A program made the translations under genes and the position numbers. From a virus (Duplodnaviria > Caudoviricetes): a DNA stretch of 61,644 bases. The notes under the pieces are model-generated. The model saw nothing but the letters and a program-made list of their open reading frames with translations, searched no databases and was not told the DNA's origin. The stretch spans positions 1 to 61,644 of the IMG/VR virus record IMGVR_UViG_3300037584_003288. One strand, given 5' to 3'. The number at the start of each line of letters is the position of its first letter. Within the stretch, counting starts at the first letter, position 1. Positions 12,944-36,400 of this stretch are shown here, in pieces.

Positions 12944-15149
12944 TGTTCTCGCGGAACTCTAGAGCGGCCTTGGCGTCTCGCAAAGCCATTTCTTGCTCAT
13001 GTTTCCTCTGCTTGATAGCCATATCAAGCTCCGCTTTCTCTTGGGCAATCTGCATCTTAACCTGATGCTCCATCATTTTTGCGTCGGGTTGTTGGGGAGC
13101 TTCTTGTCCCTCGGCCTCGGCTTGTTGCGCTTGATCCCGTTGAATTTTTTGTTGGGCTTTGGCGGTGTTGTTAATTGCTTCTTCTGCAAACTGTAGAACT
13201 TGGTTTGTTTGTCCAACAATACTTTCAAGAGCCGGGTCGCCCACGGCTAGTTGTACCGTTTGGCTAATGTGCTCATAGAAAGCTTGGAGCACTGGCATTA
13301 CTTGCATGGGGTCAGCCTGCCCTGAATTTATCTGCTGGATAACTTCAGCAAGTGCCGGGGTGTGGATTTCTAGATGGGTGCCGTGTAGCTCGTTGCCCAC
13401 GACAGGAACAGGCTGGCCCGCCATCAACTGCTGATTCTCAAAGTAGGCAATCTTAAGATCGACAGTCGGGCGCTTCTCGATATCTGCTGGGACGTACCGG
13501 TCAGCGAGGTCATGACCTACTCGGGTAGATACAATGTCGCGGGTAAGGTTTCGTCTACCTACGTCATCGAACTGACCACTGATTCCCTGAAGCTCCCGCA
13601 GAGCTACCATACGGTTGGCGTGACTGCCGTTCCCAATGGACCGAACGGCTTTAGTTCTAGCTACGTCTAGGGTTTTAATAAACTCGGCAGATACTCCCCT
13701 GTCTTCACATCGGCGGAAGAAGTCTTTGATAGCGTTGTCAGGTCGGCTTGTGGTTACGACCCGTCGAACAATCTCGCGAAGGAGCCGGTTCCAAGATGCA
13801 TAGAACAGGTTCAGGGATGCGCCAGACAATCTGGTCGTCACATCCATGTCTGCTACGACCTGCATCTGGTTCCGGTATGGTGAACCCTGATTCGGGCCAT
13901 ACGTGGACACGGTATCAGTGTTCAGTTGCAACTGTTGGGTGAGGTCCTGCAAAGCAGGCTGAACAGCAGTGCCAAGATTCGGGATAGCTTTTTCAACGAT
14001 GTTTACATTCGGACTTAGCACGGCGTATGCGCCGTAGTAAGTGAACTGCAACTCGTCCAGAGACCTTTGGGTTTCGGGTTGGATCATCACCGCAGATGCG
14101 AGCATGGCTCCATCAATCTGCTGGCAACGCAGTCTATTACTGGTCTGTACGTGGGCGAAGATGCGTTGGCCTAGGCCACGAATCGAATGGTATGTACCGT
14201 TGCTGCCGACACCATAGGTGAACATCACGTATGCTTGCTCGGCCTTTGCGTAACGAGAAACTTTCTTATACAGGAAATCTTTAGGGCTGTTCTCAGCCGA
14301 GATGTAGTGGCTCACACTCCCATCCATCTCTTTGACCCAATAATGCAAGACCCGCACCGATGGGTTTTGGATGCCGGTGTACAAGTCGTTGTTCTTCATC
14401 TCGGCCTGCATCTGCTCATAGTCATAGCTGCCGTAGTCTCGACCGTTGGTCGTGGCGTTCTTAGAGATCACTCTTTTTACTTCCTCCACGTTCCAGCCCA
14501 CTTTCTCGGCAACTTGTGGGTCTTTGATGTATGAGTGTAATTCGTGTAGGAGGTAGTTACGCCTACCAATAGCGATGTCAATGCAGTCTTCGTTAGCAGA
14601 GGTCTGTCTAGGAATAAGAATGTCGGTAAACCCACCTACTCGGAACTTCCAATCATCGGGCGAGTCAAAGTAAGCGACCGCCACTCCATGTTTAATAAAC
14701 GTGGTGCAAAGCCTTAGGTAAGCGTTGTGGAACTCAGGCCAGTTCCGCATCAGGTGTGTCAGCTCTTCCGCGACGATTTCTTCCGCCGGTTTGATTTCGC
14801 TCGCCTCTCCTTGCGTTCCACGCACCTCGACGAATCTCTCCAGAGAACTATAAAGGTCAACATAAGCAGACAGAGCCACATCGAGGAGTCGTTGTGCATC
14901 TCCGAAATTTAGGTTTGTTTTTAAGCCCTGACCGCTCGCAGATAGACCGGCGCTACTATATGGGGCTGCGCCGTCAAACATGGCGTCCACCCTAGCTCGG
15001 TTTACCGCTGACCGTTCATCGGCTCTGAGCAGAGTATTAAAAATACCTACGGCACTTTTGACATCTTTAAGACGGGTGGTTACGGGTTTGCCTTCATCTG
15101 TGAGGGCACCCAAATCTAACCCATCAATGTCCAGCGGGTATTCGCTCAT
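12933..15149 (-). CDS. Portal protein
   Basis: 738 aa, first gene of the head module, helical with a Q-rich coiled-coil C-terminus as in podovirus portals. Confidence 0.78.
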   Translation of the reverse strand: MSEYPLDIDGLDLGALTDEGKPVTTRLKDVKSAVGIFNTLLRADERSAVNRARVDAMFDGAAPYSSAGLSASGQGLKTNLNFGDAQRLLDVALSAYVDLYSSLERFVEVRGTQGEASEIKPAEEIVAEELTHLMRNWPEFHNAYLRLCTTFIKHGVAVAYFDSPDDWKFRVGGFTDILIPRQTSANEDCIDIAIGRRNYLLHELHSYIKDPQVAEKVGWNVEEVKRVISKNATTNGRDYGSYDYEQMQAEMKNNDLYTGIQNPSVRVLHYWVKEMDGSVSHYISAENSPKDFLYKKVSRYAKAEQAYVMFTYGVGSNGTYHSIRGLGQRIFAHVQTSNRLRCQQIDGAMLASAVMIQPETQRSLDELQFTYYGAYAVLSPNVNIVEKAIPNLGTAVQPALQDLTQQLQLNTDTVSTYGPNQGSPYRNQMQVVADMDVTTRLSGASLNLFYASWNRLLREIVRRVVTTSRPDNAIKDFFRRCEDRGVSAEFIKTLDVARTKAVRSIGNGSHANRMVALRELQGISGQFDDVGRRNLTRDIVSTRVGHDLADRYVPADIEKRPTVDLKIAYFENQQLMAGQPVPVVGNELHGTHLEIHTPALAEVIQQINSGQADPMQVMPVLQAFYEHISQTVQLAVGDPALESIVGQTNQVLQFAEEAINNTAKAQQKIQRDQAQQAEAEGQEAPQQPDAKMMEHQVKMQIAQEKAELDMAIKQRKHEQEMALRDAKAALEFRENSDL

Positions 15150-15156
15150 TGTTCAA

Positions 15157-15185
15157 GTGATATCCTTTTGAAACTTAATAGTCAA
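15157..15185 (-). promoter_or_regulatory. Putative leaderless promoter of the portal gene
   Basis: TTGACT-17-TATCAC, 7 nt before ATG 15149. The -10 is imperfect. Confidence 0.4.
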
Positions 15186-15236
15186 TTCTGTAAATTTCAC
15201 TGGACAGGGTGGGGGTCGGCTCATACAAGGAAGGCT

Positions 15237-15452
15237 ATGAAATGGAACTTCATTGCAGCAAGTGCATCATGCATCCTGTTTGGTGTATCATGCTCCACGG
15301 CTGATCTGGGCGGGCAAGTGCCTCTCCCATTTACGTCGCCATCAACGTCGGCCAAGCTGGATCTCGAACTCCGGCCTGTGCCACCAAAATTCTGTATCGG
15401 GCTCGATCTGGTACCGACTGAGCCCGAAACAGGGACTACAGCAGAAAAGTAG
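15237..15452 (+). CDS. Small lipoprotein
   Basis: MKWNFIAASASCILFGVS-C: basic N-terminus, hydrophobic stretch and lipobox-like cysteine; 71 aa. Confidence 0.6.
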   Translation: MKWNFIAASASCILFGVSCSTADLGGQVPLPFTSPSTSAKLDLELRPVPPKFCIGLDLVPTEPETGTTAEK

Positions 15453-15526
15453 GGGTCGATTGTGTGGGGGTGGCCCCGACTTTAACCAACTGGCAGGCAA
15501 CCCAGTTACCCCCACACAGATGCTTT

Positions 15527-15586
15527 ATGGCAAACAAACCAAAACCAAAGGGCACTAAGCCGAAGCCGAAGCCGAAGCCCTATTAA
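15527..15586 (+). CDS. Lys-Pro micro-peptide MANKPKPKGTKPKPKPKPY
   Basis: 19-codon ORF between a hairpin (15461-15518) and a terminator. Confidence 0.35.
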   Translation: MANKPKPKGTKPKPKPKPY

Positions 15587-15590
15587 TTAC

Positions 15591-15628
15591 AAGCCCGCTT
15601 CGGAGTCATAGAGCCGAGGCGGGCTTTT
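15591..15628. terminator. Terminator hairpin between convergent genes
   Basis: AAGCCCGCTTCGG...CCGAGGCGGGCTT-TT. Confidence 0.75.
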
Positions 15629-15683
15629 GTCTATTTCGTCGACATGTTCTGAAAACGTGTCGATTTACCGTGACTCAAGGTTT

Positions 15684-15887
15684 TCACGGGGGTGGGTTGG
15701 GGGAACCTCTAGTATAAATCGTGTTGCCCGAAGGGTGCGAATTCTTAGGGTCGTATATGTGGTGCTCTTTATTAACACCGACGAAACTCTCGTAAACTCG
15801 GAATGCAGCTTCGATTACAAGGCCTGTCAGAACCATTGTAATCGCCACAACCACAAGGGTTTCCATGAATGTGGACGCCTTTTTCAC
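15684..15887 (-). CDS. Prepilin-like small membrane protein
   Basis: GTG start gives MKKA|STFMETLVVVAITMVLTGLVIEAA: class III signal-peptide pattern with Glu at +5 and a hydrophobic helix. Alternative ATG at 15893. Confidence 0.55.
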   Translation of the reverse strand: MKKASTFMETLVVVAITMVLTGLVIEAAFRVYESFVGVNKEHHIYDPKNSHPSGNTIYTRGSPNPPP

Positions 15888-15949
15888 GCCCATACATAAT
15901 ACCCTGTTGTGGGGGCGGGCGTAACTCACCATTCGGGTGATATGTTGGA

Positions 15950-16402
15950 TCAGTCGTCGCCCCAGACACTCTTCACGATCTTGTCTACTGGAACCTGCTT
16001 CCTGATTCCCGATTCGTGTTTCAGGGATACGTATCGTGTATTCCCGCGCATAAACTCTGAGACCATGGATACACGGCCCGCGGTGCGGCCTCGGGGTTCA
16101 GGTTTCACGCAGTAGATGCAGCCATAGGGGGTCACGGCGAACCGTGGGAACTCAGGGATCACCTGAGCCCCCTCGAAGTCAAAGATGTGGGACAGGGACA
16201 GCTCCGGCGTAGGGGCCTCTATGGAGTCGTGGGCGAAGTGTACGCGCTTTCCGTCGTCGTTAGTCAACAGGGTCTTCCAACGGTCGCCATTCCACCATCG
16301 GCGAAGCCGCTTACAGGTCTTCGTGTTAAACACGTAGCCCGAAGGCAAGAGCACATAATCGCGGGCGTTTGGTATCGGTTGGGTCTGGGGGAGTGTATCC
16401 AT
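15950..16402 (-). CDS. Protein with two degenerate NUMOD4-like motifs and no HNH domain
   Basis: IPNARDYVLLPSGYVFN and IPEFPRFAVTPYGCIYC resemble the NUMOD4 pattern IP....Y.VS..G.V. Confidence 0.55.
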   Translation of the reverse strand: MDTLPQTQPIPNARDYVLLPSGYVFNTKTCKRLRRWWNGDRWKTLLTNDDGKRVHFAHDSIEAPTPELSLSHIFDFEGAQVIPEFPRFAVTPYGCIYCVKPEPRGRTAGRVSMVSEFMRGNTRYVSLKHESGIRKQVPVDKIVKSVWGDD

Positions 16403-16430
16403 TCAAGTGTTTTCGTTACCCCCTATATAA

Positions 16431-16500
16431 AAAGTCTCTTCTAGATTCAGTCAAACTTAATTTCTAGAAATTTTGTTGGAGTCCCTCTAGAAGAGACTTT
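16431..16500. repeat. Concentric inverted repeat and palindrome
   Basis: 15-bp perfect arms AAAGTCTCTTCTAGA / TCTAGAAGAGACTTT around a central 14-bp palindrome AATTTCTAGAAATT. Confidence 0.95.
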
Positions 16501-16513
16501 ATAGGTGGGGGGT

Positions 16514-16768
16514 CTACTCCGAAATATTGTTTGAGGCTTTCTTTTGCCGAGCTTTCTTTTGCCGGAGGTCTTTGAGTCTTGCACGGTTTCTTAGGTAGTA
16601 TGCTCGGTTATATGCACGCTTTTTGTCTGCTAATTCGGGGTCGGCTAGGATCTCTAACGCCCTCTGTTTCAGTATCTTAGCCTTGTTAGCAGCATAGTAT
16701 TTACGTTGGTAAGCCTTCCGTGCTTCTTGGTTCTTTAGATAGTATTCGTGCTTCTTCTCGTCACGCAT
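16514..16768 (-). CDS. Small basic protein with YY..N[RKQ] repeats
   Basis: EYYLKNQE / KYYAANKA / AYYLRNRA repeats. Leaderless promoter TTGACT-16-TAAAAC ends 5 nt before ATG 16768. Confidence 0.7.
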   Translation of the reverse strand: MRDEKKHEYYLKNQEARKAYQRKYYAANKAKILKQRALEILADPELADKKRAYNRAYYLRNRARLKDLRQKKARQKKASNNISE

Positions 16769-17079
16769 AACGCGTTTTACCGTGCATTTGGGGGTAGTCA
16801 AATTTTTTCACACAACATACACACACAACACGACGCTGCCACAAAAATGCAGCAGGGGACGGGTGGCGTGGTTCGTGGTTCATGATGCATGTATCAGGCT
16901 CGTGGGCCATACAGGCTCTCTCTGGACCCATAGGGGGTTGTCGAAAGGCCGCCCGAACCGGGTACCCCTCCTCAGGAGGGGAGGAAGGAATCGGAAGCCC
17001 CAGATCACCGGGAGGTGAGAGATCCTCCTCCGAGCCAAAGTCGGGCCTATGCACACTAGGATCTTGGTAACATAAGTGT

Positions 17080-17690
17080 AAAACTCCGTATGAAGGATGC
17101 CTCTTTGCCAACCCTAGCAGTTGGAGACGGGCCACCGGACTCCCGAAAGGGACGCGACAATGGGGTGCGACTAACCATAGTGGTTCATGCTGACGCGTGT
17201 TTGCAAGGTCTAGGATTGACCGATAGTGAACACTCCGAAGTGAAACCAATCGGGAAACCAGAGTTAGTGCATAATCCCGGCGAAAACAGCGGAGCGCCTA
17301 TCACCTGAGATGTGGTGAAGCGTAGCAAGGGTAACGCCTTGTGGAGCAGGAGGGACCTACCTAGTAATGGGACAGCGTAGATCGTTGAGTGAAGTCACTT
17401 CCGAGAGTAACTGATAATCCGTTGGATTCTGGCCTTACAACCCAGAACCGGCTAAGTGGGGACGCCCCCCACCTCTAGGCAGGGATTTCCCGAGCCTACA
17501 TGGACTGTCGCAGGATGGGCCGTGGAGCGGACAGCGCGGATAGAGACTTTTGAATCAGACTTTACCACTTGTTGAGAGTAAGGCTGTTGGCGAGTTGCCA
17601 GAACCGGCAAACCCAGCAGTCCTTGCTCTCACTTGAACCCTGAATCGTGATCCCCGAATCGTGATACAGGAGTCAAGTGAGTGCAAGGAA
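17080..17690 (+). ncRNA. Candidate large structured non-coding RNA / early leader
   Basis: No credible ORF. More than ten stem-loops, including GNRA loops (TCCC-GAAA-GGGA at 17141, CCTA-GTAA-TGGG at 17360). Extended -10 TGGTAACAT at 17065-17073. Boundaries approximate. Confidence 0.6.
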
Positions 17691-17715
17691 CTAACCCTTC
17701 ACTCCATCAAGCAAT

Positions 17716-18132
17716 ATGGAAAACCAGAATGCTCCTACTGTGGAGCCAACTGATACGGTCGATAGTCTCAATGAGATTCTCGACGCCGCCGATGAGGTAG
17801 AGAACAAGCGTGGCGCTCAAAAGAAGAAGCGTCAGGCCGTTCGCAAGAAGTTCGCTTCTGCGAGCAATCGCCTTATCATGGAAACCGCCAAGCTACTCGG
17901 CTTGGTTAAAACTGAATGGAAGCTCGGTTCGGACGAATACATGTCTATTGACATGACAAAGTTCGACGACAAGCAAACCGGTTCTCCCGAAGAACTTGGT
18001 TTGTTCCTAGGTCTCAAGGACAAGTGGGCGGGTGCCGGTGTCAATGTGACTACCCTCGCCTTCTCCTTGTCCGGTCAGATCAACTCGTGGGGCAAGGCTC
18101 TTGACCAGAAAGAAGTCCCGCAAGACAAGTAA
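17716..18132 (+). CDS. Early hypothetical protein
   Basis: 138 aa, first ORF of the plus-strand early block, followed by two strong hairpins. Confidence 0.8.
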   Translation: MENQNAPTVEPTDTVDSLNEILDAADEVENKRGAQKKKRQAVRKKFASASNRLIMETAKLLGLVKTEWKLGSDEYMSIDMTKFDDKQTGSPEELGLFLGLKDKWAGAGVNVTTLAFSLSGQINSWGKALDQKEVPQDK

Positions 18133-18211
18133 CCCCAAGGTCCTAGCGGGGCGGGCGACCGCTCCGCTTGTGACCCCTGCTCTCCGGCCACCGGAGGGTA
18201 GCGGTCACAAT

Positions 18212-18341
18212 GTGGGGGTAGCTCAATGTCAGAGCACTCCAGCCTAGATGCATGAGCCTAACGGACGCAGGGTTGTATAACCCTTTGAGCATCTATAATG
18301 GTAAGAGATAGATCGGGGTTAGATTCCCCGCCCCCGTCACA
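18212..18341 (+). ncRNA. tRNA-like element with an expanded anticodon arm
   Basis: Acceptor GTGGGGG/CCCCCGT, U8-A9, D-arm GCTC-AATGTCA-GAGC, T-arm CGGGG-TTAGATT-CCCCG. The anticodon region is replaced by a long structured segment. Confidence 0.65.
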
Positions 18342-18345
18342 CTTT

Positions 18346-18618
18346 ATGGCTAAGAACTATAAGGCGTCATTGCGGAGCGCCAAACTACTCTGCAAACCTG
18401 ACCGGATGAAGCCCCATGAGCGGCGACGTCTCGGTCGCCAATGGCAAGCACGCGGCAACCAGCCCGCGTTTACCCCACCTAAGGTGGATTTCAGTGACCA
18501 CATTGCGGGTGCATCTGCATCCCGTATCGTGAAGCGTGGTTCTATGTTCGACGTAGAGCACGCAGTGGATCAAGCTGTATGGGAGAAGCTCTTCATGAGT
18601 AACCCCCACCTCCGGTAA
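18346..18618 (+). CDS. Early basic hypothetical protein
   Basis: MAKNYKASLR..., start placed just after the tRNA-like element. Confidence 0.6.
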   Translation: MAKNYKASLRSAKLLCKPDRMKPHERRRLGRQWQARGNQPAFTPPKVDFSDHIAGASASRIVKRGSMFDVEHAVDQAVWEKLFMSNPHLR

Positions 18619-18988
18619 CACACTTTCCAACCGGAACCAGAGTTCGCCCACGCATAAACAGAGCTTGTTGACTAGCTCGCCAACCCCGCGTGGGCATGAC
18701 CGACAAGGTCAAAGGCATGGACCGCCGTAGAGGTTCAAGGGCTGCTCCCCCCTATGAAGGGAGCCACCACCCACAACCAAGTGCTGGAGGTAGACCGGTG
18801 GGGGTCCTGTTCAGGCAACGTCCTGTCCAGAGTATCCGAAGAAGGCAACCAGTAATATAATACATAGACTGACTCTCCTAGGCATGAGAGTAAACTGCCT
18901 ACCCTTCCCATCTTCCAATGCGATGACGGCAACGTCGGCATCGGGAACATCAAAAGATGGTAACGTAGGCATCGGAACTACTGTTAAT

Positions 18989-19162
18989 ATGAGAAAAGAA
19001 ATTGAACTAGAGATAGACAAGGATCTCGCATTATGCGAGAAGCTGGGCATTGACCCCAAGACTGGCGAGCCTAAGCCCGCACCCCGTGGGTGGGCCTATG
19101 CCGAAACATCGGTGGAGAACAACCCCGTTCTCCCCGCTAACTTCCCAACAACCAATGAGTAA
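18989..19162 (+). CDS. Small early hypothetical protein
   Basis: MRKEIELEIDKD... Stop overlaps the next start. An upstream in-frame ATG at 18884 is possible. Confidence 0.5.
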   Translation: MRKEIELEIDKDLALCEKLGIDPKTGEPKPAPRGWAYAETSVENNPVLPANFPTTNE

Positions 19163-19838
19163 TAACGTATTAGAAATAACATACTTCGACGCGGCCACCT
19201 CGAAAGACGTAGGCTGTACCTCCGTGCGGTGGGGCGACACCCTCAAGGGTGGCTTCGCTGACAGCGCCGCCGCTTCACTTATGCCCGACCATGTATCCAA
19301 GATGCAGGACAGCACCACTATATTGTGGAGCCTTGAGGTTATCTCTGAAGCCGAGTGGATAATACGCAACCCACTGAGGATACTGCATGAGCCTCCCGAG
19401 TGGAGTGACCCCCGACCCAAGACCCTGCCCTTGGTCACCAAGGACGGGGGAGTTGTGCGGCTGACCCAAACGGTGCTACCCAAGTTGCAGGTCCCTCTCA
19501 GGAATATGCTTCTCGATCTATTCGACGGGGCGAACGAGGCTACCCGTGAACACTACACAAGAGTGATATGTAAACTGACCGACATCCCTCCGCACCAGTT
19601 AAGTGAGTGGATGTATCGGGCCGAGGGAAACCCATGCCCCTTCGAGTTCGACCACAATCAAGAGAGAATGATTCGTCGGCTAGTCCGGCGTGAGTTGCGA
19701 GGCCGAGCCGAGACATGGTTCTATGAAACTCACATCTCCAAGAAGAACAAGAAGAAGACAAGCCGCGCCCGATTCTATATCGGGTGGGCCGCTGTAGGTC
19801 TCATCGCCTACGCCATCGTCAACCACCTGTTCTCATAA
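19155..19838 (+). CDS. Early protein with C-terminal transmembrane anchor
   Basis: Likely start MSNNVLEITY. C-terminal FYIGWAAVGLIAYAIV follows a lysine cluster. Confidence 0.65.
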   Translation: MSNNVLEITYFDAATSKDVGCTSVRWGDTLKGGFADSAAASLMPDHVSKMQDSTTILWSLEVISEAEWIIRNPLRILHEPPEWSDPRPKTLPLVTKDGGVVRLTQTVLPKLQVPLRNMLLDLFDGANEATREHYTRVICKLTDIPPHQLSEWMYRAEGNPCPFEFDHNQERMIRRLVRRELRGRAETWFYETHISKKNKKKTSRARFYIGWAAVGLIAYAIVNHLFS

Positions 19839-20136
19839 CAATCACTGCCCGTCCCGCGATGGGATAGGCTCGACGCCCCGCTCGGGGGATAGTTCCGAGA
19901 CTGGCCGTGGAAAAACGCAAGAATGAGTCACTGCGCCACGAAAAGACAGTGACTTGGGGAATGCTCCCCGCCCTCAAGCCCAAGTATACGTGGGCGTATA
20001 ACCAACCCTGAAAAGGGGGAGCACACTTCACCCGCTGACGTCAGAACGGCGTCAACTAACCTGAACCCTGCATCCTGTATCTTGATTCCTACAGGTTGTG
20101 GGCTTAACAACAAATAGGAATCATATATTAAGTACA

Positions 20137-21060
20137 ATGAGTGAAACACTACCTTCAAGCAGTGAAGGCATCAGAGTAAAGCTGACTGTGTGTATGTTCA
20201 ACCCACTGGTGAACGACAAAGAAGCAGCAGCAGAGCAAGCCAAGAAGAAAGATGCGAATGCAAAACAGCACAAGCATCAGATTCAACTGTTGGCTGACAA
20301 CGACATCAAGAACCTCAAGACCGTAGCCGACGAAGGACGCGCCGCATTCAAGCGGTGTGTGTCTGCTCCGTATCTGGATTACAAACCAGACCCGACTGAG
20401 GAGGTGAAGATCAGCACTAGATCGTGTTGGTACTTCCTATCCACATCACATCTGTCCGAGTATCTGGATACCATGTCCAAGTTCAGGCAGCGGTTCGAGA
20501 TGGCAAAGCAGGAGTTCATACACAGTTATGAAGACATCCTCAGGAAAGCTAACTCCAGTGATGGGGTGGGCCAAGACTTCTCCCGATTCCAACACAAGTA
20601 TCCTTCAAAGGAAGCGGTTGGACAGAGGATCTCCTTCACTACCTTTGAAGACCCCATCATCACTAGCTTCATGCCCGAGGTGTTCGACGAACGCATCCGC
20701 CATGAGATGGAGCAACTGAACCAGCGTAAGCAGGAGCAGGTAGAGTATAGCCTTCAAGCTGTCACTCGTTCCGTCACCAAGGACCTGATCGAATCCGCGC
20801 AGCACGTTGGCAAGCAGTGTGCCGCGAAGAACAAGTCCACTAGTAGCCCCATCCATGATTCTGTAGTCGAGAGGCTCGTCGAGAATCTGGAGCGGGCCAC
20901 CACCAAGGCACCCCGAGACAGCGCCGAGCTTGATGAGGCGGTGCAGATTGGTCGAGAACTCCTCGAAGAACTCGACCCCGACATTCTCAAAGCCAATGAA
21001 CACTCCCGCAACAAGGTCATTGCTGGAGCTAACCGTATGAAAGACCTGATCCAACTGTAA
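20137..21060 (+). CDS. DUF3150-like helical protein
   Basis: ~307 aa. Pattern (WYFLS...EY...F...KQEF..SY...YPS.E.V...ISF) and position directly before the AAA+ and vWA genes. Confidence 0.6.
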   Translation: MSETLPSSSEGIRVKLTVCMFNPLVNDKEAAAEQAKKKDANAKQHKHQIQLLADNDIKNLKTVADEGRAAFKRCVSAPYLDYKPDPTEEVKISTRSCWYFLSTSHLSEYLDTMSKFRQRFEMAKQEFIHSYEDILRKANSSDGVGQDFSRFQHKYPSKEAVGQRISFTTFEDPIITSFMPEVFDERIRHEMEQLNQRKQEQVEYSLQAVTRSVTKDLIESAQHVGKQCAAKNKSTSSPIHDSVVERLVENLERATTKAPRDSAELDEAVQIGRELLEELDPDILKANEHSRNKVIAGANRMKDLIQL

Positions 21061-21065
21061 TCATT

Positions 21066-22217
21066 ATGAGTAAAACAGATGAGGTGGTTCCTCTACCAAC
21101 AACCACACCTGATATGATCAAGCCCATCCTGCGACGGGCTTGTAAGGCCGACAACCCTACCGGCGATCAAGCTGGGCATTACAAACCGGTGCTGTTCTTC
21201 GGTCCCCCCGGAGTCAGTAAGTCCGAGCAGATCAAGCAGTTCGCCCGTGAGAATGGTTACACCTTGATCACAGTATATCTGTCATACCTCACCTTCAATG
21301 ACATGAAGGGTATCGGTGTGCCTGACCGTGACCCCGAGTCCCCTACCTACCAGCGCATGGTATGGTGGAGGGATGCAGTGTTCCCTGACTCCGATTGCGA
21401 TGGCAAGTATCTCATCTTCTGGGATGAGTTACTCAACGCCGCGCCTTCGGTCATCAAGGTAGCGCAGCAGGCTGTGCTGGAGCGTATGATCGGGGAGTAT
21501 AAGTTCCCTCGCAATACGATGATGGTCGCCGCTGCCAACGGACAGAAGCATTTCTGTCAGGCTAGTCGTGCCCCAGCCTCAGTCATGGACCGGTTTGCTT
21601 GCTATCAGTTACAGCCCGCGATCAAACCCATGCTTAACTGGCTTCTCAAGAATGCTAAGACTGAGTATGTGTATGGCTTCCTCGAAGGACACAATGAGTT
21701 CTTATACTGTGACAACATGGACAAGTGGGATGGTGAGCAGGCTCAGTCCAGCTCTCGCTCATACGCCAAGCTCGACCAGTATCTGAGCACATACTCAGAC
21801 CCATCCGAGATGATTGAACCCGACAATGCTCGGCTATTCAAATCAGATGTCTCTGGTTGTATCGGTGCCAAGGCTGGCGAGGCATTTATCACCCACATAC
21901 AGCTCTATGCTACATGTGGTGACGTCGGCAAACTACTGGAGAACCCCCGCACTTGCGACCTCTCCCGTATCTTGTCCCGCCCTGACTTGATGTACATCGT
22001 AGCCAGTAAGCTGGTCACACTTACTGACCAAGATAACGTGGCAGATGTTCTGCTCCTGAGTCACAGACTTACCGACCCCAACCTCAATCGTCCCGATGAG
22101 TTGGAGACTATCGAGTCACTGGTTGGCAATCGTCTCCGGTTCAATCGAAAAGACTTGAGCAACGTGAGGGACTTGCATAAATGGCAACTCAAGCACGCTC
22201 GTGAGCTTCTCAAATAG
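21066..22217 (+). CDS. MoxR-like AAA+ ATPase
   Basis: Walker A GPPGVSKS, Walker B LIFWDE, sensor AAAN, arginine finger MDRF. Confidence 0.9.
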   Translation: MSKTDEVVPLPTTTPDMIKPILRRACKADNPTGDQAGHYKPVLFFGPPGVSKSEQIKQFARENGYTLITVYLSYLTFNDMKGIGVPDRDPESPTYQRMVWWRDAVFPDSDCDGKYLIFWDELLNAAPSVIKVAQQAVLERMIGEYKFPRNTMMVAAANGQKHFCQASRAPASVMDRFACYQLQPAIKPMLNWLLKNAKTEYVYGFLEGHNEFLYCDNMDKWDGEQAQSSSRSYAKLDQYLSTYSDPSEMIEPDNARLFKSDVSGCIGAKAGEAFITHIQLYATCGDVGKLLENPRTCDLSRILSRPDLMYIVASKLVTLTDQDNVADVLLLSHRLTDPNLNRPDELETIESLVGNRLRFNRKDLSNVRDLHKWQLKHARELLK

Positions 22218-27194: not shown

Positions 27195-27421
27195 TCCACA
27201 TGGTTCGTGAGTTTCTACCCAATGGTATGCCCATCATGATAGACGGGGTGGTAGAGGGGGATAGAGTATCCCCCGCTTCTGCCCGCATCTTCCCCCTCAG
27301 TGTGGGGGAAGATGAACCGTCTGTGATTGGCACACCCTTCTATTGTTTCAACGACCCAGATGATCTGGGGCAGAAGATAGCAGACCGATTAACCAAGGTT
27401 TATGAATCCTCTAATCTTTAA
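27191..27421 (+). CDS. Hypothetical protein
   Basis: 76 aa, last gene of the early block, converges on the giant gene. Confidence 0.6.
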   Translation: MIHMVREFLPNGMPIMIDGVVEGDRVSPASARIFPLSVGEDEPSVIGTPFYCFNDPDDLGQKIADRLTKVYESSNL

Positions 27422-30400
27422 GGTCGGTAATCCTCTTACCTGTTTCTGGATCAGTGAACCGATGCTTGGGGCCAAACTTCTGGAGGGCTGCTTGAAATCT
27501 TCTGAACCGGTCAGCCATAAATTCTTTATCGTCCATTAAGAATCTTCGCTGCGCTTGCAAGCTAGGGATATACCTTTCGGTAGCCCCATACTTCACAATA
27601 CCTAAGCTCCGAGCATCGCCTACGCCCGCCCGCTTTAGCATCACTCTTACGTTCTGATCGTTAAGACCAAATTGCTCGAAACTCTTCGCGGTCTCAACTA
27701 ACCGTATCAACTCTTGATCACTCTTGAGGCGGTTATCAACCACTCGTTTAGCCATACGTTCTATTTCAAGGTCGCCTTCCGGCCCCGACAAAGAAGCAGA
27801 ACCGTCAGCTAAATCATTGAACGTATCGTTTACCAGTTGGGTACGCTCATCGTTAAGCCTTCGTGCCGCTTTACGTATTGCTTCCCCCAGTCGTACTTCT
27901 CTTGGAGATGCTGGAGCAATTATCTGTGTGATCGTCTCTTGTAAAGAGACCCGAAGGTCTTGGTCATCTGCATTCTGCAAGTCATAGTACTGACGCAAAC
28001 GACGAATATTACCCGGCTCAACTAGACGCTCAGCCGTTCTCTTAAGAATACCCATGAGTCTTTCAGCCCCCTCATCAGACTCCTTAAAACTTTTACCATC
28101 TTCGTTGGCTATTACTTCATCGATCGTGGCTTTCATAAACCCATCGTTAAAGAATCTCTTTAAGTAGCCCCCAAACAGATTGGTCATCGCGGTTTTGTAG
28201 TCGCCACGCATGAGTTCCAAGACCCCCGACGTCATCCCATCAAACACTGGAGAAGCCGCGTTGATGTAGGTTAGATCTACCGCATACAATTTACCCTTTT
28301 CAAAGTCTCCCATGAATCCGAACAATGTCTTCGCTAACCCACCCGGCAGGTAGATGTACCTGTTTAACTTACCCCATGGCGGGGCTGCTTCTTTGAGAAG
28401 TTCCTCCTCTTCATCGGTAGGGTTTATTCCCAGCAACATCGCTGAAGCAACCGGCAAACCTACTGATATTCCTCCGTGTACTGTGACAGCAGATGCTAAT
28501 CTCTTCGCACCTCGTGCCGAGATTACAGGGTTCTCACTAGCCATCTCTTCTTTAGGGATAGCCGCAACTTGATTGTAAACAATTCTGAACTGGTCTAACC
28601 AGAAAGATAGGAACGGATCCATGTGGAACGCGTTGAACTTCCTGAGAGCCTTCGCCGAGATAGGAGCTTCGGAGTAAGTTGGAGCCATGGCCCGAACTTT
28701 ACGAGCGGCATCAAACTCCATCTGCTCATCCGTCATAGTAAGAAACCCAGTATCAACACCGTTGTCGATGTCGTACTGCTTCGCTTTCTTTATCGCGTCC
28801 AGCTCTGTGTCAAACATGGCTATCTTAGTAGCCGAGTCAATCCCCTGCGCCACACTCGCCAGCCTCCGAAGAATAACGCCCGGTACAAACGCTCCCGCCT
28901 TCCCTATTTTAATAAGACCTTTCTTAATTAGCCCCTGCTCAGTCATGTCTTTATTCGTAAGAGACATGAGATCCCTTGTGGCATCATAAAATATACCGTA
29001 AGGGTTCGACTGGTTGTCACTAGACAACTGGTTAATGTAGCCAAGTTCTATCTGTCCTTGATCAATCCCCAACCGCTGCAACAAAACACTACGCTCAGTT
29101 CTATAGCGTGGGTCTTTTATTAAGAACCCAGATCGAGCAGCCGCTTTAACAAACTCAGCCATCATTCTCGCGGGGTTTACTAAGTTAGCCAACCCGTATG
29201 AAGTTAGAGCCGTAAGTGTGTTACGTATATGATACGCAGGTATGTTAGCCACCGTCTTAGAAAGCATGAACAAAGAGTTCAGTTTCAAGTAAGCATTCAC
29301 TAAATGTGCAGCACCCAAGATTAAAGGACGCATAGCCGTAGATCTATCTGCGGCAGAGAATAAAGTAGTAGCGACGTTCCCTCGGGACACGCCTTGGAAA
29401 ATCTTAAGTGATCTGTACAGCTCCTCGGGAACATACATATCAAAGGTCGGATCAAACACTCCCTGCAATCCTTGGCCCTTCTGCTCTTCGGATATAGGTT
29501 TGAGACGATCTCCTGTCTTTAGATGCACATATGGTTTTGCATCCGGTTTCGTGAGCCCTGCTTCCTCAGCCTGCTTAAACGTAAACACAAAAGCATCTTT
29601 CATGTTCCCATCTTTCACTCCCCCTATCTCGATGAGGTCATTCAGGAAACCAATAGACTCAGCCATACGGATCTGGTTCGACACCGTAGCGAAGAGAGAC
29701 GTCAATCCCTGCTCACTAAATGAGCCATCGTCTGTTTGCTCCAGTCCAAACTGTCCCAGTAGATAACGAACGCCTTCATCTATGTCACCCTTTGCTCTCA
29801 GGTTATCCACCTGAACCTTTGTAATGGCAGCCACTCCTGCTCCCTGCTCCTTTTTGATCTTAGCGATGTTAATTCTGTCCGCTTTCTTTGTAGCAATGTC
29901 CCTGACGTTCTCAAGAAACGTGTTCATGGACTCAAGACCACCGCCCTTTTTGGCAACAGATAGTTCGGCACGGCGCGTCACTTCCTCACTAAACTCTTTC
30001 TTCGAGAGTTTCTTTAACGCTTTCGCTTCCGATTCTTTTGCCGCGTCTGAGAACTTAGCGCCCTTTTCAAGGCTCTCAACCAGAGCGTCCATGCCCTTGC
30101 GTTCTATTTTCTTCTGGGCTTTGAGTAGTTGAGCTTCAAAGAATGGCATCGCCGCATCTCTGCGAGCTTGGAACTTGCCCCCTTCCTTCATCACCTCATT
30201 CAAATAAGCAATGTCATTGTATATACGATAGCCTCTGGTCAGGTAGATCCCCAAGCTCCTATCAAAGATAAGCTCAATCTTGGAACCATCTCTGTCTCCA
30301 AGACGATAGTTCTCAGATATAAGCTTACTCAGCCCGTCAATACTTGCTCTTACTTTCTTGATGGTTGAGACAACTTCAGAACCTCCCTGCTCTTCCAAGA

Positions 30401-33400
30401 ACTCAATCGCCTCCTGTTGCTTGACTCTGAAATCGCGAACCTTGTTCATCTGAAGCTGGCTAAGAACTCTGTCTTCCAGTGTCAGCTTCATGTTAGCAAT
30501 AGCAGCAGGACTAATGTGTTCGGCGGGCCTTTTGTTTGCCCTTACTTCAGCCCTAACTTTATTTACTACAGATCTACGGTTCGCCTTTACACGCTTCACA
30601 GTTTCGCTGTCCACCTTAAGAGTGTCGGTTGTACCCGCCGCAGTATTCAGAGCCGTGAGTATTTCAGCAGTAGGCTCTTTCCCAAACGCTTTCCGCAGGC
30701 TCTTCTCCATCTCACGCATGTCTGATTTCAGTAGCGCGTTGATAGATTCAGACCATCGCTCGTAGTCTCTCAATATACGAGTTACTCTTGGGTCCATCTT
30801 GTAGCCCATTAACGTAGAGATTCCTTTAGAAGGAACCCACTTACCATTCTCGTAGAGGTGGCCTACTCTTATAGACTCAGTAATTTTGTGCCTAAGAAAC
30901 TCTTCTGCTTTCTGAGAACCCTCTCCGTTACTAATGTCAGTAGCATCCTGAAATGCGCGCATCGCTCGGTTAATTCCTCTGTCTGGGTCAGCGGGATCAA
31001 ACGATGTATCTATATCAACCGACATTCCCAGAGCCTCTAGCTCTCCGTCTTGGAGAATCTTAAGGCTTTGGTGTATGCGCTGCACCATAGCCCTGTACTT
31101 AGGATAGTGAATATCATCGCTAACTCCCACACCGATATCAGATAAACGTCTAACTACCTTGTTAAATATCCCAAGAAGCTGTCTCTTGACCAACTTCATC
31201 AGCAGAGGTCGAGAAGGATCATATTCAAGATTTGACTCGCCTTCCATGGCTACGTCTTCGGTGGCCCGACCCGATTTTATTCTTCGTTGCACCTCCAGTC
31301 TAAGTCCCTCAGATAGTGCGTTTGTTCTGGCTATGCGGTCACCGGCTCTTACTGCCTCAACCCTTTCTTTTCCTTCGGTTATATATGGGTCGTCGGTACG
31401 CATACCTAACTTCTCGTACCTCCGCATGTGTCGCGGACTAATCCGCTGATACTCTTCCATCATGTCGGCTAACCCGTCGTCGCCTAACTCTTCAAAGATT
31501 GCCCTTCTTTCCGCTTTAGTTATAACTAACTTCTCAACTGCGTGAATAACTTCTTCACTAACTATAGCTTCTAGTTCGTCCTTTATCTGGAACGCTTTGG
31601 CGCGTGCCCTCCTTTTAATAATGTTACGATTTGATCTTTCGTTAAAGAAAAGACTCCCCGCAGAAAACTTCTTTACGGGCACCTCATCAGACATAGCTAG
31701 TTGGTCTAGCGCGCTATCAAGCCCATACTCATCTATCATGTTGTCTATAACAAAGACAACAGTAGGAACTGGAGAACCCTCAACTTTATCCGGTTGCGGA
31801 GCTTTCCTCCCAGTGCTGACGGCATAAGCTATCTCGTCGGTTACAAAATCTTCAGGATAGTGAGGAAGAGGATCTCCTTTGTCTACATACACAACACGAA
31901 TACCACTTGGAACCTGTCTATCTACCTCATTTTTGATTAGTCTTTCGGTAATCAAACGAGACTGCCGTCTTCTAAGAGAGTCGATCAATATCCCTATGGG
32001 TGGTCTTCTGGTTCCGTCTATCGAAAAGGTTGGGGCTTCCGAATCTTCCTTTAGCTCGCTTATTTTACGGCTGTACTCCTGATATAAATCAAACTCTGCT
32101 GTTGCTTGCCCAAAGAAAGTTCGTGCGCCTCGCGTAAGATTAAGTGGATCTTCCACAGTCTGCGGGCTCCCCAACACTCCCATAACTAAGTCTCCTGTCC
32201 GCCTCCTAATAATATTATCTTGTTCTACAAGGGCTTGTACTTGAGCAATAACAAAGTCCTGCTCTTCATCTGGAGATACAGTGTACTCATCGGCTCCACG
32301 AGCTTGAGTAAAATCAAACACCGCTTGAATAGCTTCCACCGCATCGCGCTCCACAGCCGTCTCGCGACCGAAAAGCTTCGCGAGTAAGTCCATGAAGCGT
32401 TGGAACAAGCTCCTGTTTTCCACAGCAACTTTACGTGTAGCAAATTGGAAAGAAGAAGAACTAATCATAGTTGTGTAGTACTCCTCAAAACCTCTCGCTC
32501 TGGAAAGGATCACATCCCCCGTCATACCCAACGGTACCGCTAAGTCTAGATCTGCCTGATCCCCAGTTGGGGATAATTCACCTCCGGCTAAAGAACCAAA
32601 ACCAGTGGCAAAAGTAAGGGGACGACCACTAGGATTTACGTCGTATAATCTAAGTCCCGTAACAGGATCTACAATAGAAGATTGATCTGCCACACCTTTT
32701 CTAAAATCCTCGGTTGGCTGTGAGCGAGGACCAGAACGAACAACTCTTCTACCCGTGCCAAACACATAATCCATCAAAGGATCGGCTACCCCACGCTTCT
32801 TTGCTTTAAGCCACTGATCTCGTGCTTTCTCATAGACTACCTGCATTTGCTTACGTGCAGCTCTTTGCTGTGGTGTAAGTTCATCATCAGGAGCTGTCAT
32901 TAGCTTAGCGAAAACAGCGTGACCAGCCTCATGTAAAATCGTCGAAGCCACACCCTCTCCGTATCTACCATTCAGGTTCAGGTAGATCGTGTTCGTCTCA
33001 GAATCATAACTCCCCGCATAATGCGTTGCCCCCTGCACAATTTTAAATTCAGTGCCAACACCAAGGTACGACTCAAAAGTAAGCAGCAATCTCGCAAACG
33101 ATTTTAGTCGTGGGTCGTAAGACTCCCCGAACTTATCAGGGTTAGACTCCGCGATCATAGTTATCGCTCTAGTAAGGGAACTACTGTCTCCGTCCACAAG
33201 CCCAAGCTTGTTTACCTCCGCTCGGTTTAAGTTACTCACCGCCCTTTGATGCTCCGCGCTGATAAACGAAGGGGCATTATTCTTCCGCGCAACTCTCTCC
33301 AGTTTAACTATTGTGGCGATCTGATCGAGACTTACGTCCCCGATAGATTTATTCGCCCCCTCAAAAGCGTCCCCTAGTAAATCAAACGTACCCTCTACGC

Positions 33401-36400
33401 CTCCGTTGATTGTTGATACTAGATCTGAAGACAAGAGTTCCGCTAAAGCAAAAAAAGCGTCGGGCTCTCCTTGAGCAGCCGTCGCAAAGCTTGTCAGAAA
33501 CTGTTTACGCAGCTTTACAAGCCGCGCTCTTGAGTCTTCTGGAAGATCAACCGCACTCAAAAGACTTTCTCGTAACTCTATATACGTATCTTCAAGCGTT
33601 GCCTGCGGTAGCAGGTCTACGACATCTTCATTCACCCCCGCGAAGAAGCCTTCCAAAGCAGCAGCAACCCCTTCGTTTGCATTCAGAAGTGCAATAAATC
33701 TAGTATAGATACCCTGCTTTACCGCGAACGCGTTGGGAATCTCCCTAAGTTGACGATCTGCTTCACGAGCTTCTCCAGAAACACTCTTTGTCGTCTCGGC
33801 CACTTTAGCTCCCATTGCAAGGCCCGTATCCTCAGGGGGGCGTGAGTCATCGTCTTGACTCTGAGCGCCATTCGCCATTCCGCGAGCGTCCACATTAGCA
33901 TAGACAGACTTAGCGCGGTCTACTTGCAGTTTAATAAGATCACGAGATGGGTTGTACAGATTAGGAACGCTCCGCTGAAGAGTTTCTTCAGCCGCCCCCT
34001 TGTTTCTCCCCTTCTCGCTCGCCCTAACTTGCTGAGCTATGCGGTTTAGAATAAACTCAACCACATCTAAATCCTCGTCGGCCTTCTTGGCTTCAAGTAT
34101 CTGTGACTTTTTAGCGATTGGTTCGCCCATAAGAAACTCAGACAAAGCGAACGCAGCCGCGCCGCGCCCACTTGTTACAGAAACATCTTCCCCAACCATT
34201 GACCGGAAGTTCTCTAGAGCCTTTTTAAAGGTCGGGTTGTTCTCAGTTTCTCCAGAAATATCTACGCTTGGAGACACCACGGAAGCTACTACGTCTGCAT
34301 CGCTTTGACCCTCGCTTTTACTCGCTAAAGCTTGAAGAATTGCCACTTCGACCGCCGCTCTTTGGGCTCTAGCATATAGACCCATAAGATAAATCTGTCG
34401 TATTGATTGTTCAGACTGATCTAATTCGGGGTCTGGCATTCCTGTAACAAAAGCTACTTTGTCTGAAGTAAGTGGGAGCTGAAGATTTTGGTTTTGATTA
34501 AACCAGTCAGTAAACAGTTCCAAGTACTCCTCTATTGATACGTCTTGAGGAAAATATTTAGGGGGAGTCTTTCCTGTCTCAGGGTCTACAAGATTATCCA
34601 GAGTTAGGTTTGTCCTCAAAGGAGTGTTGCTTTTAACAAACTCCATCAGATTAGCAGCCTTCTCTACAATTCGAGTCGTAATAGTTTCTGGGTTGGCTAC
34701 AAATGCTCGGCCCTTGTTGCCGAGAATACTAACTTCGCTACTTAGATCACTGCCGACAGGATAGTATATGTCATACACTTCACGCGTATCCTGCGACAGC
34801 GTTGTCCCCCCACGGTCTCCTCTAAAGGTCTTGTTAATCTGAGCTGAACTAAACCCTACGGGAATTGGAATAGACAAATGGCCCGTCGCGCTCATCGCCT
34901 TTTGCATAACCCGAGGGTCATTATTAAAGAGAATCACCTGCTCGTTAGGTCTATTGCCCTCCCCGTTATCAAATATACCTCCGTCAATATCGTTGATAAG
35001 GTATATCTTGCTAGACCCAAACTTATATTTAGAATCTACGACGGTAGCCCACTGGCGATCTGTAACAACAATCCCAATCTCTTCAAGTTGCTCTCGCGCC
35101 TTTTGCTTTCCTTCCATACCGAGAATAGGAAACTCTTTGTTTACCTCTTCTCGTATTTCATTAGAAACAGAACCCTTGTCTTTTGCGCTCAGTCCCAAAG
35201 AGTTTGGGACTCCCATAACAGCTACCGGCGCTTCTTTCTCAGACCGAGCTTTGAGCGCGCCCGAAGCAATCATGTTCTGCACAAAGTTCTCCCGTGACGG
35301 GTCAGAAGCAGGTGGATCTGAATCCTGATCCGGGTCTCCTGATTCAGGCTCGGGTTCCAAAGGCTCTTCTGCTTTTGCTACTTTCTTCGCGGCCTTCTTA
35401 GCTTTCTTCTTTGCAGTCTTTTTCTTCGTAGTTTTCTTCTTAGCCGCTGCTGCTCTTTGCTCCGCTAGACGGTCACGCTCTAGCTGCGCTTGCACCTGCT
35501 CCTCTAATTCCAGCAGACGTTTATTCTCCCCGCTAATTTCTTCGCGGCGCTTGTTCATAGACTGAAACGACTTCAGAACATCTACCAAAGAACGCAAAAG
35601 CGTAAGCTCTTGCTGTCTAGCGGTTCGTTCTACTGTTTCGGCTGTCTCAAACTCCGTCTCTTTCGCGCCAACAAGAAGCTCTACATCAGAGATCAAAGCT
35701 GTGTTTGGAACCTCGGTAAAATACTTACCACCCAGTTTCCTACCCTGTCTCCCACCGCCCGCTTTGTATGCCTTAGTTCCTTTCCGGCTTTGTGCTTCGT
35801 GTAGTGAGTCGAGTTCTTCTCTTACTTCATCCAACTTTATTTGAAGAGTCCCTTCAAAAGATTCTATTCTTCTAAGGTCCTCGACCTGCCCAACATCACG
35901 GCGGATAGATTGCATTACCCTGTCCACAAACAAGCCAGCTTCAATCTCAAGTTGTTCGTCAGTTCTACGCTGACCTAAAGGCCGCTGCGCCTCATTAAAT
36001 TTTAACCTTTCAAATACGCCTAAAATAAGCTGCTCCTTGTCAGTCACACTAATAACAGATTCACCCGAACCAGAAGGCTGCTTGTTACCGAGCGCCCCCT
36101 CTTCCAGAGTCTCTTGGATAGACGCCTCTATCTTATCCCCATCCGCTGTGCTTAAGTTCTGCTCGGCCTTTTCCTCCGTAACTCCAGTCTCAAGCTGTTC
36201 AATCAGATAGTCTCTCGCCTCCTTTAGAACACTTTGACTATCTTTATCTCCTTCGATCTTGGCCTTCTCTATCTTATAGTGTTCCCGCACAAACCCAATC
36301 GCCGCCGCACGCTCGTCAACTGACGCAGCTTCAGGGTCGTTAATCGCGTTGATAACATCTTCAGCTATTGAAGAGAGACCAAGTACACCAAGGTAATTAC

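Follow-up and report, generated by a model that had tools for sequence, protein, structure and literature searches.

Positions 16952 to approximately 17570 of the IMG/VR virus record IMGVR_UViG_3300037584_003288 carry on the plus strand what we regard, with moderate confidence, as a real, expressed, and highly structured RNA of about 630 nucleotides (nt), which lies outside all catalogued families, forms part of an exchanged cassette, and presumably acts in trans as a discrete species. The DNA analysed is the whole record of this uncultivated marine phage, 61,644 bp that are complete or nearly so (99%); it is termed the window in the following, and positions refer to it unless another locus is named. 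Our verdict is that the RNA represents a new class of large phage RNA of a known kind, namely the large ornate RNAs of phages. An initial annotation made from the sequence alone had proposed a large ornate non-coding RNA at this site, and the proposal is now backed by covariation, by a strand-asymmetric distribution of G·U pairs, by a conservation equal to or higher than that of the neighbouring genes, and by contigs from metatranscriptomes.

Apart from ribosomal RNAs, RNase P, and introns, few structured RNAs exceed ~400 nt; only a handful of such classes are known from bacteria and phages, among them GOLLD, ROOL, and OLE, whose recently determined structures were unexpected and whose functions are still poorly understood (PMC12286853). 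A further class of large RNA would be a new target for work on structure and function, and the one described here is short enough for cryo-electron microscopy, has a clear domain layout, and occurs in marine metatranscriptomes.

Relatives of the locus and conservation of the RNA

The protein of 138 amino acids (aa) that is encoded next to the RNA led to a single relative in IMG/VR (locus L002, 66% aa identity). Compared with the gap in the window, the gap in L002 is a mosaic in which invariant blocks alternate with replaced or inserted hairpins. A scan anchored on Block A, an invariant sequence at the divergent junction (Table 1), retrieved 4 IMG/VR and 14 metagenome stretches. Several contigs are duplicates of one another (L002 = L006 = L010 = L022; L012 = L015; L008 = L011 = L016), and in five the sequence rightward of the anchor is too short (23–194 nt in L016, L020, L024, and L026, and 776 nt in L017). 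A scan with the ATPase gave four loci, just two of which extend to the junction. Scans of IMG/VR with a 16-mer and a degenerate 17-mer were discarded: they returned mostly chance matches in coding DNA, and only the relative already known was real. GenBank phages searched by blastn at the 'distant' setting gave no match; the GTDB species genomes contained no match to a two-block pattern of the RNA and none to Block A, and gave no clue to a host or prophage.

By blastn, the relatives form groups whose common part is only the first ~100–150 nt past Block A. Type 1 comprises the window, L014, L023, L002, the partial L017, and the short L026; type 2 comprises L012 and L013, with L018 and L027 matching its ends only; and type 3 comprises L008, L019, L021, and L025. 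The four further homologues of the type-1 RNA (L014, L023, L017, and L002) are 73–91% identical, and across them the RNA keeps invariant blocks between swapped hairpin modules. Over the RNA core, the identity to the window is 91.2% for L014, 84.2% for L023, and 72.9% for L002, the corresponding values for the adjacent gene being 83.6, 84.3, and 71.0%. The RNA core is conserved about equally with, or more than, the adjacent gene.

Architecture, consensus fold, and covariation

The alignment contains five of the six distinct type-1 sequences, L026 having been omitted for too little sequence, and the consensus computed from it by RNAalifold comprises 178 pairs in 32 helices. It describes a three-domain RNA of ~630 nt in which long-range helices close domain II and likewise domain III (Table 1). 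Domain II contains helices 12–13 (17162–17176 with 17261–17278), helix 14, a variable arm (~17189–17243), and an invariant GAAA-capped stem (17252–17259), and in domain III the minimum free energy (MFE) fold of the single sequence equals the consensus fold. Long invariant unpaired runs and invariant GNRA-capped stems stand between peripheral hairpins that are lineage-specific, a pattern that is typical of an RNA with tertiary contacts or a bound partner in its core and not of a plain hairpin array.

When the sequences are placed on the consensus structure, standard pairs occupy 94.2% of 856 cells, and the compensatory changes that the initial annotation had suggested seeking among homologues are present: 36 pairs are changed on both sides, compared with 14.7±2.6 in shuffles (none of 500 reaches 36) and 0–7 in six slid controls. 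Because the alignment that yielded the structure also served to score it, a hold-out test was run, in which a structure computed from only the four closer sequences was applied to L002. In L002, 143 of 181 pairs form, and of the 39 pairs with changes on both sides, 24 stay paired; with partners slid by 1–3 columns, 57–76 pairs formed and 4–11 were kept. G·U cells far exceed A·C cells (64 vs 9), and the fold therefore belongs to the plus strand and to RNA, not to duplex DNA. Compensated pairs are found in helices 3 (two), 4 (two), 5 (one), and 6 (four of five), in the long-range helix 13 (17165–17176 with 17261–17272, three of 11) and in helix 14 (17181–17185 with 17244–17248, two of five), in helices 26 and 27, and, towards the 3' side, in the 18-bp helix 29 (three), its inner helix 30 (one), and helix 31 (two).

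All stems listed in the initial annotation (16965, 17141, 17207, 17231, 17301, 17326, 17360, 17393, 17427, 17456, 17476, and 17505) are present in the sequence, as are complementary octamers at 17250 and 17486 and copies of an 11-mer at 17442 and 17598, and the comparison grades them. Conservation accompanied by compensatory changes is seen in four of them (16965, 17360, 17427, and 17456); the one at 17301 is real in the window but kept in only three of five sequences, and those at 17207, 17476, and 17505 exist but lie within insertions limited to the window and L023. The long-range pairing envisaged between 17250 and 17486 shows no conservation across the type-1 alignment, because 17486 sits in an insertion within domain III (Table 1) that is absent from three of five homologues. 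The 11-mer, a repeat in the window, is not retained as one in L002. The first hairpin of the insertion in domain III resembles the recurrent promoter-like motif described below, and is perhaps a degenerate copy of it or an internal start site.

The extent originally given, about 16960–17560, does enclose a structured element, but the structure continues past that end into a stable hairpin module (Table 1), which terminates 11 nt upstream of an ATG and which none of 200 shuffles equalled in stability. It contains two near-repeated 5' strands, at 17574 and 17679, and for each of them both of two near-repeated 3' strands, at 17621 and 17696, are possible partners, resulting either in a side-by-side fold, as in the consensus, or in a nested three-way fold, as in the MFE structure of the window; the pairing 17574:17621 is backed by three compensations in L002. 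The segment adjacent to the start codon is paired in both folds, so that no simple switch can be read from them. The loop of helix 31 (17640–17670, and the same loop in L014, L023, and L002) carries short tandem repeats that vary in sequence from one relative to another and may be protein-binding sites.

Non-coding nature

The plus strand of 16952–17566 is non-coding. In the type-1 alignment of four full-length sequences (the truncated L017 was excluded), variable columns are spread over the three phases as 89/213, 84/214, and 96/209, without third-position excess, which is evident in the downstream gene (48, 36, and 82 of 138). The earlier statement that no plausible open reading frame (ORF) exists here holds: the ORFs are short, are not kept among homologues, and lack codon periodicity. 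ORFs that open in the region shared by all types (62 aa in the window, 70 in L023, 121 in L012, 108 in L013, and 146 in L008) were considered as genes and rejected, given their unequal lengths, their absence from L014, L019, L021, and L025, frame-shifting indels, and the lack of periodicity; between L012 and L013, the differences by codon position number 10, 11, and 14.

Presence in RNA libraries

DNA words of the stretch are present in 16 marine DNA runs with shares of 0.23–1.00, three of which possibly represent the source sample, and in four marine metatranscriptome runs from three studies with shares of 0.05–0.15. The look into metatranscriptomes that the initial annotation had recommended yielded contigs over the RNA itself: nine contigs mapped to 14000–22000 at a likeness of at least 80%, and seven of them tile 16952–17578 (Table 1), leaving 16839–16951 uncovered. 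Contigs from two different studies both start exactly at 16952 without a loose end, which is a weak hint that this position is the 5' end. Contigs in X19 and X20 combine G>A at 17459 with C>T at 17469; these positions are partners in helix 27, and the change is compensatory. The flanks (14000–16951 and 17579–22000) gave no well-fitting RNA contig, only two partial, mismatch-rich pieces at 15250–15298 and 19872–19977. As the runs had been chosen for holding the stretch, the empty flanks are counted neither in favour of a discrete RNA nor against carry-over of DNA.

An exchangeable cassette with three RNA types

The proteins encoded on the left flank are kept in all relatives, and those of the window are closest to the type-2 locus L013 (738-aa protein, 90%; 150-aa protein, 94%). 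Only L023 and L010 (= L002) share the type-1 RNA and the first rightward gene with the window, and the same holds for the full-length second gene; the left flanks of these two loci are 78–91% identical to the window. The RNA type does not follow the phylogeny of the flank; therefore, the unit of RNA plus genes has been exchanged. The cassette consists of the RNA and the genes for the 138-aa and 106-aa proteins and has been swapped by recombination.

In phages of types 2 and 3, the same slot holds unrelated non-coding sequence of 600–800 nt followed by other small genes, and the flanking genes and the ~150-nt control region are shared with type 1. Beyond these ~150 nt, no homology between the RNA types was seen. 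A covariance model of domain III (R1) scores 121–155 bits in the five type-1 sequences, which match by construction; it found nothing in type-2 and type-3 loci under default filters, at best a match with an E value of 0.085 on hairpins of other composition when the filters were off, and nothing across five whole records of relatives. The type-2 RNA, for which two of four loci were aligned (the middle parts of L018 and L027 are not alignable), is 90.9% identical, compared with 67.1% for the next gene; among its 54 variable columns, all 21 varying predicted pairs stay paired, ten of them through double changes. It ends in a long hairpin shortly before the ATG, and the bases just 5' of the ATG are common to types 1 and 2. 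The type-3 RNA (four sequences) is 93.8% identical, compared with 85.8% for the next gene, and shows nine double changes, eight single changes, and four broken pairs. Closely related phages thus hold unrelated large RNAs at one position, each conserved at least as well as the adjacent genes.

Some further features of the exchanged regions may be mentioned. The 5' end of the type-2 RNA (L012 3177–3215 and its equivalent in L013) contains a stem-loop resembling the T-arm of a tRNA, followed by an acceptor-like strand, and ARAGORN reports no tRNA there. In type-3 phages, a second gene-free stretch of ~1.2 kb (L008 2566–~3789) follows the first small gene; a 24-nt hairpin motif is present in it twice, and another hairpin there contains a 7-nt unit repeated four times in tandem (2631–2665). 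One to four exact copies of the 24-nt motif occur in the rightward regions of 10 of 45 loci, in many cases with a short conserved tail behind them; the motif is a candidate phage promoter and a candidate right border of the cassette. About 10 nt past it, a tRNA-like gene begins in L013 and L023. This sequence (L013 3463–3599, minus strand; the same in L023 ~10 nt past 10411) matches the Rfam tRNA model with 45.7 bits over 137 nt and is not reported by ARAGORN; an interrupted tRNA, or one of unusual form, is a possible reading.

Rather speculatively, the slot, which extends from the shared divergent control region to the first hairpin-type promoter, could be a hot-swap site at which at least three unrelated large structured RNAs serve as functional analogues under diversifying selection, for example as decoys or inhibitors of variable host defences or machinery, or as RNA-only assemblies. 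If so, it would be the first described viral locus of interchangeable large non-coding RNAs; as far as our literature searches went, the replacement of unrelated large RNAs by one another at one locus has not been described. Should the RNA types do equivalent jobs, their comparison could reveal the purpose of large phage RNAs.

Genomic context

The RNA lies in ~950 nt without a credible gene, between a leftward gene for an 84-aa basic protein and a rightward ATG at 17716 (Table 1). The basic protein is found by tblastn with 77–83% aa identity in all eight loci tested and has no Pfam family and no named Atlas cluster. Block A is identical in 14 of 14 aligned relatives except for one or two bases at its 3' end and is probably promoter or control DNA of the leftward gene. 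In the same 14-relative alignment, the RNA types diverge directly past ~16945. For the product of the second rightward gene, L013 offers just a weak match of 38 residues. Cumulative GC skew peaks at ~17–18 kb, near the divergence of the leftward and rightward blocks, and across the genome the skew shows no simple replication pattern.

Table 1 Positions of features of the RNA locus in the window and of related features in other loci
Feature	Position	Strand	Basis and remarks
84-aa basic-protein gene, leftward	16517..16768	-	ORF list; kept in all relatives irrespective of RNA type
Block A	16803..16838		invariant 36 nt at the divergent junction, search anchor; alignment of relatives
Control region common to all RNA types	16839..16951		conserved primary-sequence blocks and variable spacers; alignment of 14 relatives
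Domain I	16952..17080	+	helices 2-6, including the 16965 stem; possible 5' end 16952
Domain II	17081..17298	+	closed by long-range helix 7 (17084-17092 with 17287-17294)
Linker	17299..17387	+	variable hairpins (helices 18, 19, 21) and invariant GUAA-capped helix 20 (17360-17371)
Domain III	17388..17566	+	closed by helices 22-25 (17391-17420 with 17538-17563); helix 26 (17421-17452), helix 27 (17456-17472)
49-nt insertion in domain III	17477..17525	+	window and L023 only, gap in 3/5; holds stems 17476 and 17505
3' hairpin module	17573..17704	+	helices 29/30 (17573-17631), 31 (17632-17677), 32 (17679-17704)
Rightward gene 1, 138 aa	17716..18132	+	without family; only in phages carrying type-1 RNA
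Rightward gene 2, 106 aa	18298..18618	+	without family; full-length homologues (71-82% aa) only in type-1 phages
24-nt hairpin motif copy	18877-18900	+	2 mismatches; sole copy in the window
Hairpin motif copies in other loci	L012 4422-5110 (4); L013 3316-4208 (4); L008 3214-3444 (2)		
RNA-run contigs	16952-17101; 17122-17231; 17202-17352; 17204-17354; 17391-17529; 17406-17578		
RNA-run contig, joined	16952-17013 joined to 17157-17208		different 111-nt module between

Elsewhere, the window encodes, among other proteins, a terminase, a family-A DNA polymerase, a helicase, an exonuclease, and tail proteins. An ORF of 4144 aa (27411–39845, minus strand) has no sequence match in Pfam, PHROG, or PDB. 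The idea that it is an N4-like virion RNA polymerase, and that the region is hence an early one, is a guess from its size that finds no support in these searches. Another ~800 nt with short ORFs only (15150–15949) are located between the gene for the 738-aa protein and an HNH-like gene, and L002 has a tRNA-Trp (2074–2149) on the corresponding side of its junction. Upstream of the 38 gene starts examined in the window no Shine-Dalgarno-like motif is present, and the upstream regions are often A-rich; this would suggest a host with Shine-Dalgarno-independent initiation, presumably such as members of the Bacteroidota.

Interpretation and alternative explanations

Rightward transcription would start from the shared control region (16803–16951), and the RNA would be the first product of a rightward, presumably early, transcription unit, with the hairpin module at 17573–17704 possibly protecting or defining its 3' side. 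With somewhat less than even likelihood, it may then accumulate as a discrete, stable, trans-acting species, which is our preferred reading, and either bind a partner from the host or the phage or assemble with itself as do GOLLD and ROOL. In size, in its closed domains and invariant junctions, and in the variability of its periphery, the RNA is more similar to GOLLD and ROOL than to any leader.

The most serious competitor, which we consider plausible and less probable, is a cis-acting structured 5' leader of the rightward operon. In it, a large sensor or platform domain would be followed by the 3' module, which would control transcriptional read-through, the stability of the mRNA, or how the 138-aa gene is translated, and what is seen in the libraries would be nuclease-resistant remains. 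Such a leader would explain that the RNA is on the same strand as the gene and ends 150 nt 5' of its ATG with no intrinsic terminator between them, an arrangement compatible with a separate RNA and with a leader alike; it would also account for a 3' module with two mutually exclusive pairings that ends so close to the start codon, for the long hairpin and the pre-ATG bases that type 2 shares with type 1, and for the constant association of each RNA type with its own downstream genes, which likewise suits a role in cis. The lack of a terminator, the distance to the ATG, and the association with particular genes weigh against an RNA acting in trans, as do the scans for signals: no sigma-70-like promoter site was found by the promoter scan, and the two terminator-like sites, no more than in shuffles, are both located elsewhere than between the RNA and the next gene. 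The leader is, however, difficult to reconcile with ~630 nt in three closed domains, which to our knowledge far exceed the known cis-regulatory leaders of phages and bacteria, and the start-codon segment, paired in both alternative folds, offers no obvious on/off logic. Moreover, no contig bridges the RNA to the gene, though a bridge could have been missed. Very improbable, in our estimate, is a replication transcript, that is, a long folded RNA made at the divergent junction and serving to prime or activate DNA synthesis by the family-A DNA polymerase in the manner of ColE1 RNA II. The position at the divergence and at the GC skew peak, the polymerase encoded by the phage, and a size of the same order as that of RNA II would suit it, but no iterons or AT-rich unwinding stretch were seen adjoining the RNA, the skew lacks a simple replication pattern, and an origin, which has to match the replication proteins, would hardly be expected at a locus where unrelated RNAs are freely exchanged.

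It is also conceivable that no functional RNA fold exists, the stretch being a DNA-level control region or a chance-structured spacer whose hairpins act, if at all, in DNA. This is already disfavoured, and we deem it the least probable of the alternatives: helices whose strands are 90–200 nt apart show compensatory changes, G·U exceeds A·C in a strand-specific way, the stretch is covered by contigs of RNA libraries, and identity matches or exceeds that of coding neighbours across 600 nt. Features that would suit it are the first ~150 nt past Block A, which form conserved blocks without clear covariation, the promoter-like hairpin look-alike inside the stretch, and the folding energy, which also counts against the RNA that we propose. 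The z-score of the MFE for 16960–17560 (601 nt) is −1.39 on the plus strand and +0.05 on the minus strand (20 shuffles each) and thus unremarkable, an outcome that the initial annotation had named as speaking against its proposal. With 200 shuffles each, domains I (16952–17080, +0.21) and II (17081–17298, −0.96) are no more stable than shuffles, but domain III (17388–17566, −3.83) and the 3' module (17567–17718, −8.40) stand out. Of the 178 consensus pairs, the MFE fold computed from one sequence contains just 83 for the window and 36 for L002; the single-sequence MFE is a poor guide to the whole RNA. Folding energy alone makes a weak claim, and the case therefore rests on comparison, which outweighs the unremarkable z-score of the whole interval. 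The comparison has its own weaknesses, as it covers five sequences only, four of them fairly close, and as the shuffled and slid controls lean toward the consensus, the structure coming from the scored alignment. Similarly, the RNA-run contigs have a depth of 2–5, carry no strand information, and come from runs selected by the words of the stretch itself, so that DNA carry-over is a possible source of them.

Comparison with known RNA families and systems

A gathering-score scan of the window against Rfam 15 gave no match among 4227 families, and permissive scans (E values up to 10) of the window and of the corresponding regions of L002 and L023 gave sub-threshold noise with nothing common to equivalent positions, such as miRNA-like matches on the long 3' hairpin and a Whalefall-1 match with 13.4 bits against a cut-off of 37. 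RNase P, group I and II introns, HEARO, 6S RNA, and self-cleaving ribozymes are presumably all contained in Rfam 15, none of whose families matched. Membership in the classes that the initial annotation had suggested or listed for checking (GOLLD, ROOL, and RNase P) thus finds no support, either at gathering score or as a consistent sub-threshold match in three homologues. For GOLLD and for ROOL, this means no gathering match in the window and, with E values of 10 or less admitted, none in it or in the L002 and L023 regions. As GOLLD, ROOL, and OLE have profiles that come from Rfam (PMC12286853), the scan extended to these classes, and none of them was found. Among the relatives, a gathering scan of L002, L008, L012, and L013 returned two tRNAs only, and ARAGORN found no tRNA or tmRNA gene in the window.

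With the packaging RNA of phage phi29, the present RNA shares the character of a structured phage RNA at the start of an early unit, there acting in trans within an assembly; the phi29 RNA, however, has only ~170 nt, and the present RNA shows no Rfam match and no evidence of a link to packaging. T-box and riboswitch leaders are similar in being located on the same strand directly upstream of a gene and in placing alternative hairpins after a sensor-like part, but the present RNA is several times larger, has no terminator U-tract, does not expose the start codon in its folds, and matches no leader in Rfam. A survey of candidate structured RNAs in IMG/VR lists elements of 29–151 nt (PMC10690425). 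These candidates stem from the same data source and were likewise recognised by covariation in phage intergenic regions; a fragment of the present RNA may be among them.

The closest resemblance is to GOLLD and ROOL, and the differences are as follows. No match in sequence or structure exists, and the present RNA occupies an exchangeable slot directly upstream of small genes. As regards homo-oligomeric, RNA-only nanocages such as those of GOLLD and ROOL, no palindromic covarying loop was noticed when the alignment was read by eye. GOLLD was first found in marine metagenomes, and GOLLD and ROOL often occur near tRNA genes (PMC12286853); here, single tRNA genes are found at a distance of 1–2 kb in L002, L013, and L023, and none in the window. 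Like GOLLD and ROOL, the present RNA is encoded by phages, measures 600–800 nt when its types are taken together, is built of several domains, and combines conserved cores with variable parts.

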